Positions 31,828 to 63,099 of a DNA stretch of 64,000 nt are shown here, in pieces. Each line of letters starts with the position of its first letter. Within the stretch, counting starts at the first letter, position 1. The stretch spans positions 786,724-850,723 of the forward strand of contig CP066690.1 of the NCBI GenBank assembly GCA_016432465.1, given 5' to 3'. Made by a program: the position numbers and the translations under genes. The notes under the pieces were generated by a model. That model worked only from the letters and a program-made list of their open reading frames with translations. It was not told the origin of the DNA and did not search any database. Source of the stretch: Candidatus Sungiibacteriota bacterium. Lineage in GTDB: Bacteria; Patescibacteriota; Minisyncoccia; Sungbacterales; HO2-52-23.

Positions 31828-31900
31828 TCCGGTGTAGCTCAGTGGTAGAGCGGCTCCCTGTTAAGGAGACGGTCGCAGGTTCGAATCCTGCCACCGGAGC
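31828..31900 (+). tRNA. tRNA-Asn (anticodon GTT)
   Basis: TCCGGTG/CACCGGA acceptor, anticodon loop CTGTTAA, T-loop GGTTCGAATCC. Confidence 0.8.
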
Positions 31901-32306
31901 AAAGGGCGTGATTTGGGGTAGAAATCCCCGAATCGTGCCTTCACTGGGGGCTTTTCCGAGGTTCGAATATTATTTCGAGGTTCGGAGAGCTCCAACGCAT
32001 GATGAGAAAGTGTCATGAGCAATGCACCGCTAGGAATGGCGGTGTTTTGCTTTTGTTCGAATTTTTTCCATGCGGGGGTAAACTTTGCGAGTATTTCGAA
32101 GGCTTTGCTGTACTACAGTTCACAGTATTACGATGGCATAAACCTCACGCAGTTGAGGCCGCGAGTTGTTGCTTTCAAAACATATAAAACACACGACGGC
32201 ACTCTAATAGAGTTGTTTCAAGGAAACCGTGGGATGAGACCGGATCTCGATTTTGTTATAAAGATTTTTATCCCCGGGATATGGGAATAGATGAAAATTA
32301 GCAACC

Positions 32307-32828
32307 TTATCGAGGCACCGGTAATCCTATTTTTTGCAGCGGTAAGTAATTGAAGTAATATTGACACCCAACTGAAATAACATAATCGAGCGTATCTTTA
32401 TATGCGGGATTTTTGAACCAATCGTTGAGAATATAGACATATTCAACCTCGATATTCAGCGGTGCCATAAGTTTGCGATATTGTTTTTTCTTAAAGTCGC
32501 AAGTTTGTAGCTTCTCATCAACCGATCCCGCGACTTTCTGAAATTTCATCTCAATAATAAAGAGTGTGTTATTTACGATTACATATAAGGCCTCGTCTGG
32601 AAAAAGACGCTTCGAAACTAATTTATGCCAATTGATCTTCCTTTCCAATAACAACTTATATAGCCCCTGCTTGCGGTAACTGCGAGCTACTTCTTTGCCA
32701 CGATAATAAATTACACTGCCTTTCACAGAATAATCCTTAGCCTTTTTGAGAATTTCTAAAATATCGCGCTCTTTCTCAAAATTTAATCCCGTAATTGTAT
32801 TTCCCCCTCCTACACCTTTTGCCTTCAT
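32307..32828 (-). CDS. Putative type II restriction endonuclease (PD-(D/E)xK)
   Basis: FPDEALYVIVNNTLFIIEMK (PD...ExK spacing), 173 aa, 5 bp downstream of and co-directional with a DNA methyltransferase. Confidence 0.4.
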   Translation of the reverse strand: MKAKGVGGGNTITGLNFEKERDILEILKKAKDYSVKGSVIYYRGKEVARSYRKQGLYKLLLERKINWHKLVSKRLFPDEALYVIVNNTLFIIEMKFQKVAGSVDEKLQTCDFKKKQYRKLMAPLNIEVEYVYILNDWFKNPAYKDTLDYVISVGCQYYFNYLPLQKIGLPVPR

Positions 32829-32833
32829 AATTT

Positions 32834-34315
32834 TTATATTTTATTAAATTTTAGTGATAGATTTCGATTCAATTCTTCAAAGCGTTTAACGGATAAATCT
32901 AAAAATTTTGGTTCGGTATCGATGCCTATAAATTTTCTACCATGAAGATAGGCCGCGATGCCAGTAGTGGAACTCCCGGTGAATGGGTCAATAACTAAAT
33001 CACCTTTATTTGTGCTTGCGAGTACTATTCTTTTTAACAAATCTTCTGGTTTTTGTGTAGGATGTTTCCCAAACCTTTTTTCTATCGGTCTTGGCGTGCC
33101 CATTGACCAAACCGAGCGCATTTGGAGACCTGGTTTTTTTAAATTATCCTCTGCCCAATGGCCATTTTTCATTAGATCATAATTGAATGTATGTTTCGCC
33201 TTTCTTTCTTTTCTCGCCCAAATTAAGGTTTCGTGACTTGCGGTAAAATATCGGCAACTAAGATTCGGTGACGCGTTTGGTTTAAACCACGCAATATCGT
33301 TTAAGATATGATAACCGAGGGCCTGTAGGGCGTGACCACACTGATAAATTGAATGGTAAGTACCACTGACCCAAAGAGTGCCGTGCGGCTTCAAAACTCT
33401 CCGACACGCCTCCATCCATTTGTAATGAAAATCATAGTCATCTTTGAACCCCTTGCTTTTGTCCCAATCTCCCTTATTCACGCTAACCATTCGCCCTGCG
33501 TGAACCGTAAAGCCGCCATTGGAAAGGTTGTAAGGTGGATCGGCAAAAATCATATCAACTGAGTTTTCTGGAAGTTTTGCCAGTACATTGAGACAATTCG
33601 CTTGGTAAAGTTTAAACCCTGGCTTTTCATAATATGGTTTTGATGTAGTTACTTTCTGTTCTCTGTTGTAGAATTTTATTTCTGGAGAAATTTCTAATGG
33701 GGTAGTGTTGATGTTCTCACGAATAACATCGAGAACTATTCCTTGTATTGAAACATCCCGGCCATTTCTAAAAATAAGCGGCTCCATGCTTCTATTTGCT
33801 GGCTGTAAACGGATATGACCGCGCTCTCTATAAAATTTCTTTAGCGTCGCTTCGTGATTGTCTATAAGCGCAACTACTTTTTGGCCATTGTCAGCAACGG
33901 CTTGTTGTTTCACTAAAACGACATCGCCGTCGTTAATATTCTCGTCAATCATACTGTTGCCAACTACGCGGAGGGCATAGAATTCACCACCTCGAGGCAA
34001 CTTACTTTGAGGGACCGCGATGGTTTCCTTTTCTTGTATCGCTTCAATCGGCTGGCCCGCGGCAATAGTCCCGAGTAGCGGGATTTTCACCAGCCTGGCG
34101 GCTTTTTCCACTAAACTAATACCACGCGTCGAATTATCATCTTTAGTAATAAATCCCTTATCTGCCAAAGTTCCGATATGCTGGTGGATCGTAGAAAGTG
34201 ATGCGAGTCGGAAGTGTTTTTTAATTTCTTCCAAAATTGGTGAAAGGCCCTTCTTGTTGATATAGGACTTGGTATAGTCGTAGATTTGTTTTTGTCGCTT
34301 GGTTAGAGTAGCCAT
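32834..34315 (-). CDS. LexA (complete wHTH + S24 autopeptidase) fused to C-terminal beta-class N6-adenine/N4-cytosine DNA methyltransferase
   Basis: Residues 1-200 align with LexA: LTKRQKQIYDY, cleavage-site IPLLGTIAAGQP, catalytic VVGNSM Ser and LKKF Lys. Residues ~270-490 carry IFADPPYN (motif IV) then DPFTGSSTTGIAA (motif I). Confidence 0.75.
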   Translation of the reverse strand: MATLTKRQKQIYDYTKSYINKKGLSPILEEIKKHFRLASLSTIHQHIGTLADKGFITKDDNSTRGISLVEKAARLVKIPLLGTIAAGQPIEAIQEKETIAVPQSKLPRGGEFYALRVVGNSMIDENINDGDVVLVKQQAVADNGQKVVALIDNHEATLKKFYRERGHIRLQPANRSMEPLIFRNGRDVSIQGIVLDVIRENINTTPLEISPEIKFYNREQKVTTSKPYYEKPGFKLYQANCLNVLAKLPENSVDMIFADPPYNLSNGGFTVHAGRMVSVNKGDWDKSKGFKDDYDFHYKWMEACRRVLKPHGTLWVSGTYHSIYQCGHALQALGYHILNDIAWFKPNASPNLSCRYFTASHETLIWARKERKAKHTFNYDLMKNGHWAEDNLKKPGLQMRSVWSMGTPRPIEKRFGKHPTQKPEDLLKRIVLASTNKGDLVIDPFTGSSTTGIAAYLHGRKFIGIDTEPKFLDLSVKRFEELNRNLSLKFNKI

Positions 34316-34402
34316 AAACGATTGACTCAGCGTACTTATTTTCTTACACTATCAGTATACCGAAGATTTGCCGAAGATGTAACAAGTGAGTTATCCACAG
34401 AC

Positions 34403-35347
34403 ATGGGAACAAAAACATCAAATCCAAAAAGACAGCATTATGTACCGGCCTGCTATTTAAGAGAATTTACTGATCCGCGAGACGGATTGCTTTGGATATT
34501 TAATAAAGACGGGAAAAATGTTCGTAGACAGAAACCAGAAAAAACTTTTACATCAAATCATCTCTACACGATAAAAATAAGTGGCACCAAGGACTACCGC
34601 ATCGAACAAACACTTTCGAATATTGAAGGTAACTACGCCGGTATATTTCAAAGTAAAATCAAGAAGAAACTCCTTCTAACAGACTACGAACACATTATTT
34701 TATGTGTTTTTGTTGCAGCCCAACTTCAAAGGACATTGCGCATGAAGAAGAATCATGAAAATTTCATCCAACAGATTATAGATCACGGCAAACAGCTATT
34801 AATGGTTCACGGTAAGAATACTAATTCTAAGCAAATACAAGAATGGGAATCGTATAAAAATGACATCCATAAACTTCAGTTGTTAGATGGGTTGCCCTTT
34901 TTAACTAAAATTTTGCATCAGATGAGTGTTGCGTTTGTATGCTCGGCAAATCCTCAAAAACACTGGTTCATTACATCTGATGATCCATGCACTCTTTTCA
35001 ACCCAGATTTACAATGGCAGCGTTTTTATGGCCCGGGTTTTGGACAGAAGAATGTGCAACTAACGATGCCTCTATCGCCGGAAATAACTGTTTTCTTTTG
35101 CTGGGCTAATTATCATGGCTATTCACTTGCTGACGGCTATACGGTGGAAGAAATGATGAATAGGATGACGCGCGGGCACTGTCACAAAGAATTTGTATCT
35201 CCATTTGGCAATAAAAAATGGATATGGTTTAGTAGGATTCCTTTGGACCCGATATTTCTAATCAAAGTGTTAAAAACACGGCTTCGCTTTTTCTTGCATG
35301 ATGTAAAAATAAAGTGGAGGCGGCGTAAGTGCAAACGATATGAATGA
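34403..35347 (+). CDS. DUF4238-like protein
   Basis: N-terminal QHYVPACYLREF and C-terminal WFITSDDPCTLF match the two DUF4238 signature blocks as I recall them. Start MGTKTSN is preferred over the upstream alternative at 34322. Confidence 0.5.
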   Translation: MGTKTSNPKRQHYVPACYLREFTDPRDGLLWIFNKDGKNVRRQKPEKTFTSNHLYTIKISGTKDYRIEQTLSNIEGNYAGIFQSKIKKKLLLTDYEHIILCVFVAAQLQRTLRMKKNHENFIQQIIDHGKQLLMVHGKNTNSKQIQEWESYKNDIHKLQLLDGLPFLTKILHQMSVAFVCSANPQKHWFITSDDPCTLFNPDLQWQRFYGPGFGQKNVQLTMPLSPEITVFFCWANYHGYSLADGYTVEEMMNRMTRGHCHKEFVSPFGNKKWIWFSRIPLDPIFLIKVLKTRLRFFLHDVKIKWRRRKCKRYE

Positions 35348-37082
35348 TCTAGTCGAAAAAATTAAAGAAGTAGAGGCATCTTCGTTATCTGACGCAGAAA
35401 AGCTACAGCAGTTTGTAAATTTCATGGTCTCGCTTAAACCCGTTGATAATTCAGCGGCTTTAGTATTAGCTTGCACCTACGGAATATCTTCTGCGCAGAG
35501 ATTAGGTAGGTCAGAGATGGAAGCGCAATTTTATATAACTAGGGCTAAAGTATTCATTATGCAAACTGGTACTCTGATCCATGAGATGAAAAATATTACT
35601 TTAGCACCGCACTGGTTTCAGTTTGCTCTTGAGTCAGAAAAGAAAAGGTATGCCGAACTGGATATGCAAGTCAAAAAAATCTGGAGCGATGTTCAAGCTG
35701 ATATAGAAAAAGCATTTGAGGCGATCAATAAAAATCGTATCGCTGGTGCCGTTGCCTTCGTCTTAAAAACTACTGGTGAAGTTTATGGTCAATACTATTT
35801 ACAACTCAGGTTGTACTGTTTTAAATCAAAGTCGCCGTTTCATGCTCGGTTAGCAAACATGAAAATTTTTCGATGGATTGGGGCCGATGATTTTTTCGTT
35901 CTCAGTAAGGAGGCTAGAGGTAAACTTAAAACTGTGAAAAATGATTGTTTAACAAACCTATATAAAGCGATTGCTCTTTTTAAGCAACATAAGAATTACG
36001 ACTACCTGGCTGACGCCCTGCTTGCTCTTTCAACAGAATATCGTTCTTTCCAAAGTCCAATAAGGTCAAGATTTTATCTTACTCAAGCGGAAAGACTGAT
36101 AAAAAAGCATAAACTAACAGAACTTGAAGGCAACTTAGCTCTTATGAAGCGATGGGAGCCATTTAGTAACTATAATCCTAAAAATTTTATGGACATTAAC
36201 AGACTTGTAGAAGCTAATACTGCGTTTAGGAGGTTTGAAAAGGAGCTCTCTGGGTTTAGCGTCTCCGACAATAAAGCAAATAAATTTATGTCTTTGCTGT
36301 TAAGCTCTCTTGAATCTTTTGAGCTTGTTTCTACCCGTTACGCAAATATTAGAAACAAAATACAAGATATACACAAAGAAGAATGGGCGCAGAGAAAAGC
36401 AAATCCAGAAAGAAAATCATGGCCCGCACATCCTGATGAAAAATACTCCTACGCCGCCGTACGAGTAGATGCTGAATCTCTTTTTATATTTGGAATAATC
36501 ATGGTTCGCAGGACCCTCCCATTGATAGAATTGTTTATTCTCGATAAGCCACCGGCTAAAACATTCGAAGATTTGAGCAATTTCTATAGTTGGATTTCAA
36601 CTACCCCGAACCCATCAAAACTAACTGCTGATTTAAGAAATGATTTCGGTCATCATTTCAGATGGCTTTATGCGGTACTAAGATTTTACAGAAATAGATT
36701 TGTTGAGCATCTCAGTGAACCGCGACAACAAGGAATGAACTTTGATTTGGGAGGGAAAAAATTTGCATTACACTCCTATAAGTGGAATTTTAATGCGAAT
36801 GACGAAAAAGCTATTTTGGATTTTAAGAATAAACTGGAAAAAAGAGGTATAACGATACCAAATGAACATAATCCACGACATTATGTACAACTGGTTTTTG
36901 ATAACTTGGATCAGGTTCCCGAAGATTTTCTGCAGGACGCACTAAGATTAATTGATGATATCGGGATAGATTCGCCGTCACCAACAACTTTAATAAATCA
37001 CATTGAGGCGTATCTTCGGGATTTATTTAATTTTATGAGTGATCGTATTGGAGACAGCCACTTGGCTCAATACCGCAAATAA
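35340..37082 (+). CDS. Large hypothetical protein (580 aa, predicted helical)
   Basis: 8-bp overlap with the preceding gene (operon); no motif recognised. Confidence 0.4.
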   Translation: MNDLVEKIKEVEASSLSDAEKLQQFVNFMVSLKPVDNSAALVLACTYGISSAQRLGRSEMEAQFYITRAKVFIMQTGTLIHEMKNITLAPHWFQFALESEKKRYAELDMQVKKIWSDVQADIEKAFEAINKNRIAGAVAFVLKTTGEVYGQYYLQLRLYCFKSKSPFHARLANMKIFRWIGADDFFVLSKEARGKLKTVKNDCLTNLYKAIALFKQHKNYDYLADALLALSTEYRSFQSPIRSRFYLTQAERLIKKHKLTELEGNLALMKRWEPFSNYNPKNFMDINRLVEANTAFRRFEKELSGFSVSDNKANKFMSLLLSSLESFELVSTRYANIRNKIQDIHKEEWAQRKANPERKSWPAHPDEKYSYAAVRVDAESLFIFGIIMVRRTLPLIELFILDKPPAKTFEDLSNFYSWISTTPNPSKLTADLRNDFGHHFRWLYAVLRFYRNRFVEHLSEPRQQGMNFDLGGKKFALHSYKWNFNANDEKAILDFKNKLEKRGITIPNEHNPRHYVQLVFDNLDQVPEDFLQDALRLIDDIGIDSPSPTTLINHIEAYLRDLFNFMSDRIGDSHLAQYRK

Positions 37083-37103: not shown

Positions 37104-37589
37104 ATGGCCGCAGGATGGGTACATGCATCGATGGATTTAATGGCGTTTGGACGCAGTTATTTTGATTTGCATAAATACAAAGATCATCCTTGGAGAGAGT
37201 TGGGATATAAGCATAGGCAAATAAATCACGATTGGTATAAAGAATTCGGTAAAAGCTGGAATTTCAATGAACCATTCCCCCCAATAATTCACATGAGAAC
37301 TGATGCTATAGAGAATCCAGATGAGGCGGAACAATTTCAATCGTGGACTTCACACGATTATTTGGATCGTATCTGGGATACTCTTGATTTTGAACGGCGG
37401 AGAAGTTTTGAGCTGGCTTGCAAATGGTTTTTGGAAAACCCCGAAGAACTGAATCGAGTTTACGAAATCGATGTTTTTAGAGGTTTAATTTTCCGTGTTA
37501 TTGACGGAAAAGAAGTAACTGAGAATTGTCCTGAACTCGTCAAAGAATATCAGCGTCTCCGTAGCTATGTGGCAAGGATTAATTTGTAA
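37104..37589 (+). CDS. Hypothetical protein (161 aa), third gene of DUF4238 operon
   Basis: Co-directional, 21 bp after the preceding gene. Confidence 0.35.
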   Translation: MAAGWVHASMDLMAFGRSYFDLHKYKDHPWRELGYKHRQINHDWYKEFGKSWNFNEPFPPIIHMRTDAIENPDEAEQFQSWTSHDYLDRIWDTLDFERRRSFELACKWFLENPEELNRVYEIDVFRGLIFRVIDGKEVTENCPELVKEYQRLRSYVARINL

Positions 37590-63011: not shown

Positions 63012-63099
63012 GACAGTGGTGCACCGCACCACTTTTATTTATAAAAGAAAGTTATCCACACTTGATTATAAATAAATTTTTGTTGATTATTAAACTATA

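Follow-up and report, generated by a model that had tools for sequence, protein, structure and literature searches.

A complete LexA repressor fused to a DNA methyltransferase: the putative controller of a mobile restriction-modification cassette in Patescibacteria

This report concerns a stretch of 64,000 nucleotides (nt) from Candidatus Sungiibacteriota bacterium (assembly GCA_016432465.1, contig CP066690.1, positions 786,724 to 850,723 of the forward strand), referred to below as the window, and a gene on its minus strand at 32834-34315 (stop codon included). The gene encodes a protein of 493 amino acids (aa), which is confirmed to be a full-length LexA joined to a beta-class DNA methyltransferase. 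A gene for a 173-aa candidate restriction endonuclease (32307-32828) follows in the same direction after a gap of 5 nt; a first-pass annotation of the sequence had given this arrangement exactly. We consider it rather probable that the two genes belong to a mobile type II restriction-modification (R-M) cassette in which a complete LexA has replaced the usual controller, so that the operon would repress itself and be derepressed with the stimulation of RecA. The RecA-stimulated cleavage, the induction by damage and the operator binding are what we infer from sequence comparison. The circuit appears to be self-contained and distinct from the global SOS regulator of the cell.

The domain composition of the protein was established from the open reading frame (ORF), Pfam, TIGR00498, the homologues and an AlphaFold2 (AF2) model; all coordinates in this paragraph refer to the minus strand. 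The winged helix-turn-helix (wHTH) DNA-binding domain of LexA (residues 1-65, 34121-34315) is recognized by LexA_DNA_bind (PF01726) at 55.5 bits against a cut-off of 23.7, and its recognition helix, STIHQHIGTL, occupies about residues 41-50. The S24 peptidase and dimerisation domain (residues 79-194, 33734-34081) scores 101.6 bits with Peptidase_S24 (PF00717), and N6_N4_Mtase (PF01555) scores 196.8 bits over residues 253-476, both above the gathering score. The lexA equivalog model TIGR00498 of NCBIfam gives 185.8 bits, where its cut-off is 110.95, and aligns residues 1-200 with positions 1-201 of its 203. The methyltransferase domain as a whole (residues 225-493, 32837-33643) also matches the PADLOC model MTase_II at 326.5 bits and resembles CcrM. 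Searched by sequence against the PDB, the protein finds CcrM (6pbd) as its top match (1.3e-58, residues 237-478) and the LexA of T. maritima over residues 4-199 (6.3e-33). The motifs AAG (85-87), GNSM (119-122), TLKK (157-160), DPPY (259-262) and FTGSS (445-449) are in place. The predicted self-cleavage bond, Ala86-Gly87 (codons at 34055-34060), was assigned by conservation in the aligned fusions; the S24 dyad consists of Ser121 (33953-33955) and Lys159 (33839-33841). In the AF2 model, for which 36 homologues served as input, the protein folds into three modules, namely the wHTH, the beta-domain of S24 and the methyltransferase. Residues 201-224 (33644-33715), between LexA and the methyltransferase, form a disordered linker with a predicted local distance difference test (pLDDT) score of 26-29, which is also the most gapped and least conserved stretch in the alignment of 36 fusions. 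Low pLDDT in residues 86-95 is what one would expect of a mobile cleavage loop. The first-pass annotation had read a complete LexA at the N-terminus, and Pfam, TIGR00498 and the AF2 fold all agree with it; it was equally right about the beta-class methyltransferase, whose catalytic motifs are intact, with DPPY ahead of FTGSS.

A search of 5.8 billion proteins shows that fusions of LexA to a methyltransferase do exist in other genomes: at least 120 clusters, 61-90% identical and all with the three domains, come from assemblies at JGI, ENA, Logan and NCBI. If these proteins have public names at all, they are called only “modification methylase” or “site-specific DNA-methyltransferase”. In 36 aligned fusions, down to 61% identity, A86, G87, S121 and K159 are invariant, as are the catalytic residues of the methyltransferase, whereas the recognition helix of the wHTH is variable. 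At least three LexA lineages are found fused to the same methyltransferase, and each of the 31 fusions aligned from three divergent lineages retains the Ala-Gly pair, the serine of GxSM and the lysine of T[LV]K. The cleavage site and the Ser/Lys dyad proposed earlier are thus not only present but under purifying selection.

The promoters of the 31 fusion loci having upstream DNA were compared, and all share a common architecture: an invariant TGTGGATAA(C/G), an interval of 0-12 nt, an element lying in the spacer between a -35-like and a -10-like hexamer, and a TATAAT-like -10. In the window, a consensus scan places the promoter-like hexamers GTTACA (-35) and TATACT (-10) at 34354-34383 on the minus strand, separated by 18 nt. 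The spacer is filled by the direct repeat ATCTTCGG-caa-ATCTTCGG with an 11-bp period (34360-34378, minus strand), which is the predicted LexA operator. An SOS-box-like palindrome, suggested earlier as possible in 34316-34402, is not there; this direct repeat is found instead. LexA operators of this kind, direct repeats with an 11-bp period, are described in Alphaproteobacteria (GTTC-N7-GTTC, PMC4951493), and the predicted operator of the fusion recalls them.

The spacer elements fall into three classes, which match the type of the recognition helix perfectly in the 31 loci. In class A (17 loci, including the window), the helix ST.H[QE]H goes with TTCGG direct repeats of 11-bp period; in class B (8 loci), ST.H[FY][HY] or STVNHY goes with TTCTA direct repeats of the same period; in class C (6 loci), the helix SSNQ.LLD of a divergent LexA goes with the palindrome CCGACCA-N2-TGGTCGG. 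All three differ from described SOS boxes. The fixed position of the element, and its sequence switching together with the DNA-binding helix, are the grounds on which we predict it to be the self-operator. Box and repeats together were also considered as a plasmid-like iteron origin; this was rejected, as there are only two short repeats and no rep gene, and class C has a palindrome. Closer to the gene, AGTCAA(T/C) occurs 8-13 nt before the ATG, at the Shine-Dalgarno position, in about nine fusion loci (34319-34331, minus strand, in the window), and these loci have no GGAGG-like sequence at the position expected of it. GAGTC before the ATG as a site of self-methylation was rejected, since AGTCAA rather than GANTC is conserved.

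The invariant part of the promoter region is TGTGGATAAC, which has the same sequence as the DnaA-box consensus (TTATCCACA) and in the window marks the 5' end of the cassette, at 34390-34399 (minus strand). It stands upstream of 31 of 31 fusion genes, whatever the LexA lineage or the operator, and 33 of its 61 occurrences in the 1.12 Mb of fetched DNA fall within 160 nt of a fusion start. The window has one other exact copy (63051-63060, minus strand), which is intergenic and adjoins a hairpin. The 10-mer is also found ahead of some unfused methyltransferases and of lexA genes of the type seen in loci L032 and L043; the promoters of a further family of standalone LexA proteins lack it. It is not a LexA operator, being invariant while the helices differ, nor is it a -35, since class C promoters carry a separate TTGACA. 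DnaA-dependent control and a boundary of the cassette are the candidates for its role. From one locus to another, unrelated genes precede the box (RpoC-, UvrB- and RuvB-like genes are among them), and sequence conservation between loci starts at the box; therefore, the conserved cassette begins there.

The composition of the cassette was compared in 160 loci fetched from species-representative genomes and metagenomes. Unfused methyltransferases of about 270 aa, 70-88% identical to residues 226-493 of the fusion, occur in many lineages of Patescibacteria, and this enzyme forms the core of a cassette that is highly mobile among them. The neighbouring slot is held by four unrelated gene families. 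The first is that of the 173-aa protein. The second, MutH/Sau3AI-like (206-214 aa), reaches in relatives 33.6 bits with PF02976 against a cut-off of 23, and about 50 bits with the Sau3AI (NF040973) and MutH equivalog models against cut-offs of 300 and 243; the 173-aa protein of the window has no match to this family. The third, DUF6996 with DUF6997, matches the PADLOC model of type II restriction endonucleases (3.4e-32). The fourth, of about 190 aa and with unassigned fold, is convergent to the methyltransferase. Methyltransferase domains with different partners, fused or unfused, are interleaved at 81-95% identity; hence there has been repeated exchange of both partner and controller. The window itself keeps a trace of such exchange: the ORF 32015-32290 (91 aa, plus strand, convergent to the operon), immediately past the 3' end of the 173-aa gene, contains at 32108-32278 a truncated relic of the ~190-aa partner gene, with 74% identity over 57 aa to the N-terminus of that partner (E 2e-29). 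The complete ~190-aa gene is convergent to the fusion in loci L001, L011, L012, L097, L098 and L101. We regard the relic as evidence that the 173-aa nuclease gene displaced an earlier partner here.

The controller varies as well. Although widespread, the fused form is the less common one: of at least 594 species-level genome hits, the 80 that score best include about 10 fusions. Among 128 unfused cassettes, at least 14 have a 66-aa gene of the HTH_3/XRE type that ends at the start codon of the methyltransferase, the classic layout for a C-protein; none of the 35 fused loci has such a gene, nor has the window; hence LexA occupies the controller slot. On this comparison, the cassette is one that swaps controllers: none, an XRE gene of the C-protein type or a fused LexA. 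The helix-specific operator-like element in the spacer and the C-protein gene in the same slot of sister cassettes strengthen the wiring of the operon to LexA that was proposed in the first-pass annotation.

The mechanism that we presume is as follows. A dimer held by the S24 domains would bind both TTCGG half-sites in the promoter spacer and repress the operon of the methyltransferase and the nuclease, which would keep the levels of both enzymes under homeostatic control. Filaments of RecA on single-stranded DNA (ssDNA) would form upon DNA damage or phage attack, or when the nuclease of the cassette itself cuts host DNA that is under-methylated, and would stimulate self-cleavage at Ala86-Gly87. 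The DNA-binding domain would thereby be removed and the operon derepressed, and the free S24-methyltransferase left by the cleavage should remain catalytically competent. The invariant DnaA-box-like 10-mer would be a second input to the operon.

Several points weigh against this reading. The nuclease is co-transcribed with the methyltransferase, so that derepression would lift both, and the benefit could be either self-protection or heightened defence. The perfect co-variation of helix and operator comes from about three independent clades and does not count as 31 events. The region is no richer in promoter-like sites than shuffled sequences are. In L009, L012 and L096 the box and the repeats are inverted relative to the gene (CCGAA repeats, then TTATCCACA), which complicates simple occlusion of the promoter; the element evidently works, or at least persists, in either orientation. 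Finally, the window contains neither recA nor a second lexA.

The reading combines two established modes of control: autorepression by a methyltransferase with a helix-turn-helix (PMC3874152) and the damage-responsive control of defence operons (CapH/CapP, CapW, CapK/S). In CapH with CapP, CapW/BrxR and CapK with CapS, a repressor that heads a defence operon loses its activity upon the appearance of ssDNA or DNA damage, and CapK/S loci sometimes adjoin R-M systems (10.1101/2022.04.27.489752; PMC11662680; PMC13373217). These systems rely on a metallopeptidase, a WYL sensor or a kinase, each a separate protein; in contrast to the fusion, none is based on LexA/S24 or covalently joined to the enzyme that acts as effector or antitoxin. 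What would be new here is an R-M controller in which the repressor borne by the methyltransferase has the autoproteolytic switch of LexA. The first-pass annotation knew of no controller of this kind, and none was found in the searchable literature: full-text searches returned no account of a LexA/S24-methyltransferase fusion, nor of LexA associated with methyltransferases in the Candidate Phyla Radiation (CPR). A preprint on Thermus phages describes LexA-like repressors beside defence genes, unfused.

Survival of the host of a type II R-M system while methylation lags, as it does following entry into a new cell, following repair synthesis or under stress, is usually explained by C-proteins or by methyltransferases with a helix-turn-helix. 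If the reading is true, DNA damage has a direct input to a type II system, which is so far known only of type I alleviation and some abortive-infection operons. Type I restriction alleviation likewise ties R-M to DNA damage, so that unmodified products of repair are spared; it acts by ClpXP proteolysis of the restriction subunit and involves no methyltransferase fused to LexA. To our knowledge, no type II equivalent has been established. The family is large, natural and modular, with sister cassettes that have a C-protein or no controller and with three LexA lineages each having its own operators; because of this it offers a clean comparative and experimental system.

A wider version of the proposal can be stated, which we hold as possible but doubtful. 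The operon would be a damage-triggered R-M switch, in which the self-cut both derepresses the operon and frees an active methylase, so that the cassette would carry a built-in circuit of restriction alleviation and boosted defence; the RecA filaments may also come from repair synthesis; the DnaA box would gate the switch by replication status; and LexA-type repressors would be a general and hitherto unrecognised class of regulators of defence operons in Patescibacteria (R-M, Shedu, CBASS). Standalone LexA homologues of Patescibacteria (about 200 aa, loci L166-L175) do head operons of the defence type, which contain SduA_C (Shedu), SAVED with SMODS (CBASS), GmrSD_N with HNH, and EcoRI-type and C5 methylases. 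Their promoters have a common TTACGC motif, which forms a palindrome in L170 and L172; five standalone lexA loci belong to a different LexA family and show the TTACGC motif but lack the box. These operons suggest that defence genes are commonly under LexA-type control in Patescibacteria, and that LexA is associated with defence genes more widely, the fusion being the covalent extreme. Patescibacteria are reported to lean heavily on R-M systems and to have few CRISPR systems, and the finding hints that LexA-type regulators are a common layer of control for their defence genes.

The alternative that survives best, although we find it unlikely, is that the LexA module only binds DNA and dimerises, as a built-in autorepressor similar to a C-protein or to M.SsoII, and that cleavage has no physiological role. 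LexA would then also provide the dimer used by beta-class methyltransferases; CcrM, the closest solved homologue of the methyltransferase, works as a dimer. The sister cassettes function with an XRE protein or with no controller, and methyltransferases bearing a helix-turn-helix autorepress without any cleavage. The latter is an established mode of R-M control: the SsoII/Ecl18kI, EcoRII and MspI-type methyltransferases repress their own promoter through an N-terminal helix-turn-helix and, like the fusion, have no separate controller gene (PMC3874152). They differ from it in that theirs is a simple helix-turn-helix with no protease, whereas the fusion adds a whole LexA, the wHTH with a presumably self-cleaving S24 domain and its conserved Ala-Gly bond; for this reason, repression by the fusion could be released irreversibly by DNA damage. 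C-protein systems belong to the same cassette family and occupy the same slot in the sister cassettes, but their controllers are separate small activator/repressors of the XRE type with palindromic C-boxes and no signal input, and the window has no such gene. The conservation described above stands against an idle protease: the cleavage residues remain invariant in the 36 aligned fusions and in the three LexA lineages while the helix-turn-helix drifts, so that proteolysis is unlikely to be dispensable.

It is quite unlikely, in our opinion, that the fusion is the only LexA of the organism and runs a genome-wide SOS regulon, with damage signalling and methylation physically coupled. Such a role would agree with the equivalog-level score in TIGR00498 and with the lack of any other lexA within the window, and Patescibacteria genomes are small and often streamlined. 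The fusion shares with the LexA/SOS repressor (TIGR00498; PDB 3k2z, 1jhh) the catalytic residues and an operator-like element in its own promoter. It differs in being covalently extended by an enzyme of 270 aa, in residing on a mobile cassette and in showing no sign of a wider regulon in the window, where the exact operator is found only at its own promoter and matches with one mismatch are at chance level. The cassette is moreover sporadic and mobile, with fused and unfused domains interleaved and fusions in the minority, as reported above; its flanking genes differ in every locus; in the window it lies in a low-GC patch; and related genomes have separate lexA genes. A self-contained circuit fits these observations better.

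The 173-aa protein, encoded on the minus strand, is a candidate restriction endonuclease of the PD-(D/E)XK type, with P77-D78 and E93-M-K95. The first-pass annotation described the spacing as PD-x16-EMK; it is in fact PD-x14-EMK. Its reading of the two genes as an R-M pair holds, given the restriction-endonuclease fold and the conserved synteny. The family of the 173-aa protein comprises 821 clusters at the 50% level, in which P77-D78 and E93-x-K95 are nearly invariant; PDDEXK_11 matches 45 of 55 members. In a fold search, the best structural matches are type II restriction endonucleases, and the profile compared with the PDB by sequence gave nothing meaningful. Members of the family lie directly downstream of the methyltransferase in about 40 of 164 loci. 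Intact methyltransferase motifs (catalytic DPPY and the FxGxG-like AdoMet motif FTGSS), an adjacent gene with the PD-(D/E)XK fold and conserved linkage of the two genes, as in type II R-M systems, are all found.

The opposite view, that the pair is no R-M system, the methyltransferase being an orphan or an epigenetic enzyme similar to CcrM and the 173-aa protein a nuclease of repair or of another kind, seems to us very improbable. It can draw on the MutH-family gene that stands in for the 173-aa gene in many loci, MutH being a repair nickase; on the 43 unfused loci that have neither of the two partner families searched, and the 17 fused loci that were without a partner before two further families came to light; and on the lack of depletion of GATC and GANTC in the window (observed/expected ratio, O/E, 0.92 and 0.98). 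As in CcrM/HinfI-type N6-adenine methyltransferases, motif IV (DPPY) precedes motif I, and the flexible DNA-binding loops are similar. The fusion fails the CcrM model NF050803 (249.6 against 830 bits, covering only positions 6-252 of 350), lacks the C-terminal domain by which CcrM binds DNA non-specifically, ending 17 residues past the Pfam domain, and is paired with nucleases. Against the opposite view, four unrelated nuclease families alternate beside near-identical methyltransferases, the signature of partner swapping in R-M systems; one of them matches the PADLOC model of type II restriction endonucleases, and the best structural matches of the 173-aa protein are to enzymes of this type. 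C-protein genes accompany some of the cassettes, and the mobility is extreme, with 82-100% identity across different candidate phyla.

The recognition sequence may be GANTC, as the similarity to CcrM argues, or GATC, as argued by the MutH/Sau3AI-like partner and by the slightly stronger depletion of GATC. In pooled host DNA the ratio is 0.73 for GATC versus 0.84 for GANTC, a weak preference for GATC that is not decisive. Site avoidance was rejected as a route to the recognition sequence, neither site being depleted in the window. The most under-represented short palindromes of the whole window are TCGA (O/E 0.50-0.58), CTAG (0.56), CTNAG (0.55-0.58) and CCNGG (0.66-0.68); their scarcity may be a footprint of other R-M systems in the genome.

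That an assembly error or a frameshift joined two separate genes is practically negligible as an explanation: although the sequence is derived from a metagenome-assembled genome and in the relative L043 lexA and the methyltransferase are two neighbouring genes, each in its own frame, the non-identical clusters from independent assemblies, at least 120 of them, share the uninterrupted architecture with a conserved junction region, so the fusion is neither chance nor a mis-join. In L043 (3211-4777), a complete lexA of 243 aa stops about 10 nt before the ATG of the unfused methyltransferase, which is in another frame; L032 has the same lexA with the same upstream gene and no adjoining methylase. 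The arrangement in L043 is possibly the precursor state of the fusion.

Two variants of the fusion deserve mention. In L041 (3956-6276), a LexA similar to that of the window has as its fusion partner a beta-class methyltransferase that is far more divergent (199 bits), and a D12-class (Dam-like) methyltransferase comes next; the box recurs in the promoter together with TTCTA repeats, and the layout with two methylases recalls the DpnII system. In L010 (3998-5839) and L091 (2527-4368), the fusion has 613 aa, with about 120 extra C-terminal residues that have no Pfam match, and a second TGTGGATAA box occurs further downstream, ahead of another methyltransferase gene.

As to the genomic setting, the locus had been described as lying in an AT-rich island next to tRNA-Asn. 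The compositional dip is there (GC 0.37-0.42 at 32-38 kb versus about 0.47), as is the tRNA-Asn gene at 31828-31900, adjoining the low-GC patch; the marks of an integrated island are not, since no repeat of 12 nt or more, and thus no tRNA-derived att repeat, was found for the 3' end of tRNA-Asn, and there is no integrase among the neighbouring genes. Divergent from the fusion in the same patch, on the plus strand, are genes for a DUF4238 protein (34403-35347; Pfam 1.9e-30, PADLOC candidate “DUF4238-Pers” 6.6e-8), a 580-aa protein (35340-37082) and a 161-aa protein (37104-37589), the last two having no family match. A TTG start at 34322 is probably incorrect for the DUF4238 gene, whose Pfam match sets in only past the ATG at 34403. 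The three genes may constitute a small defence island.

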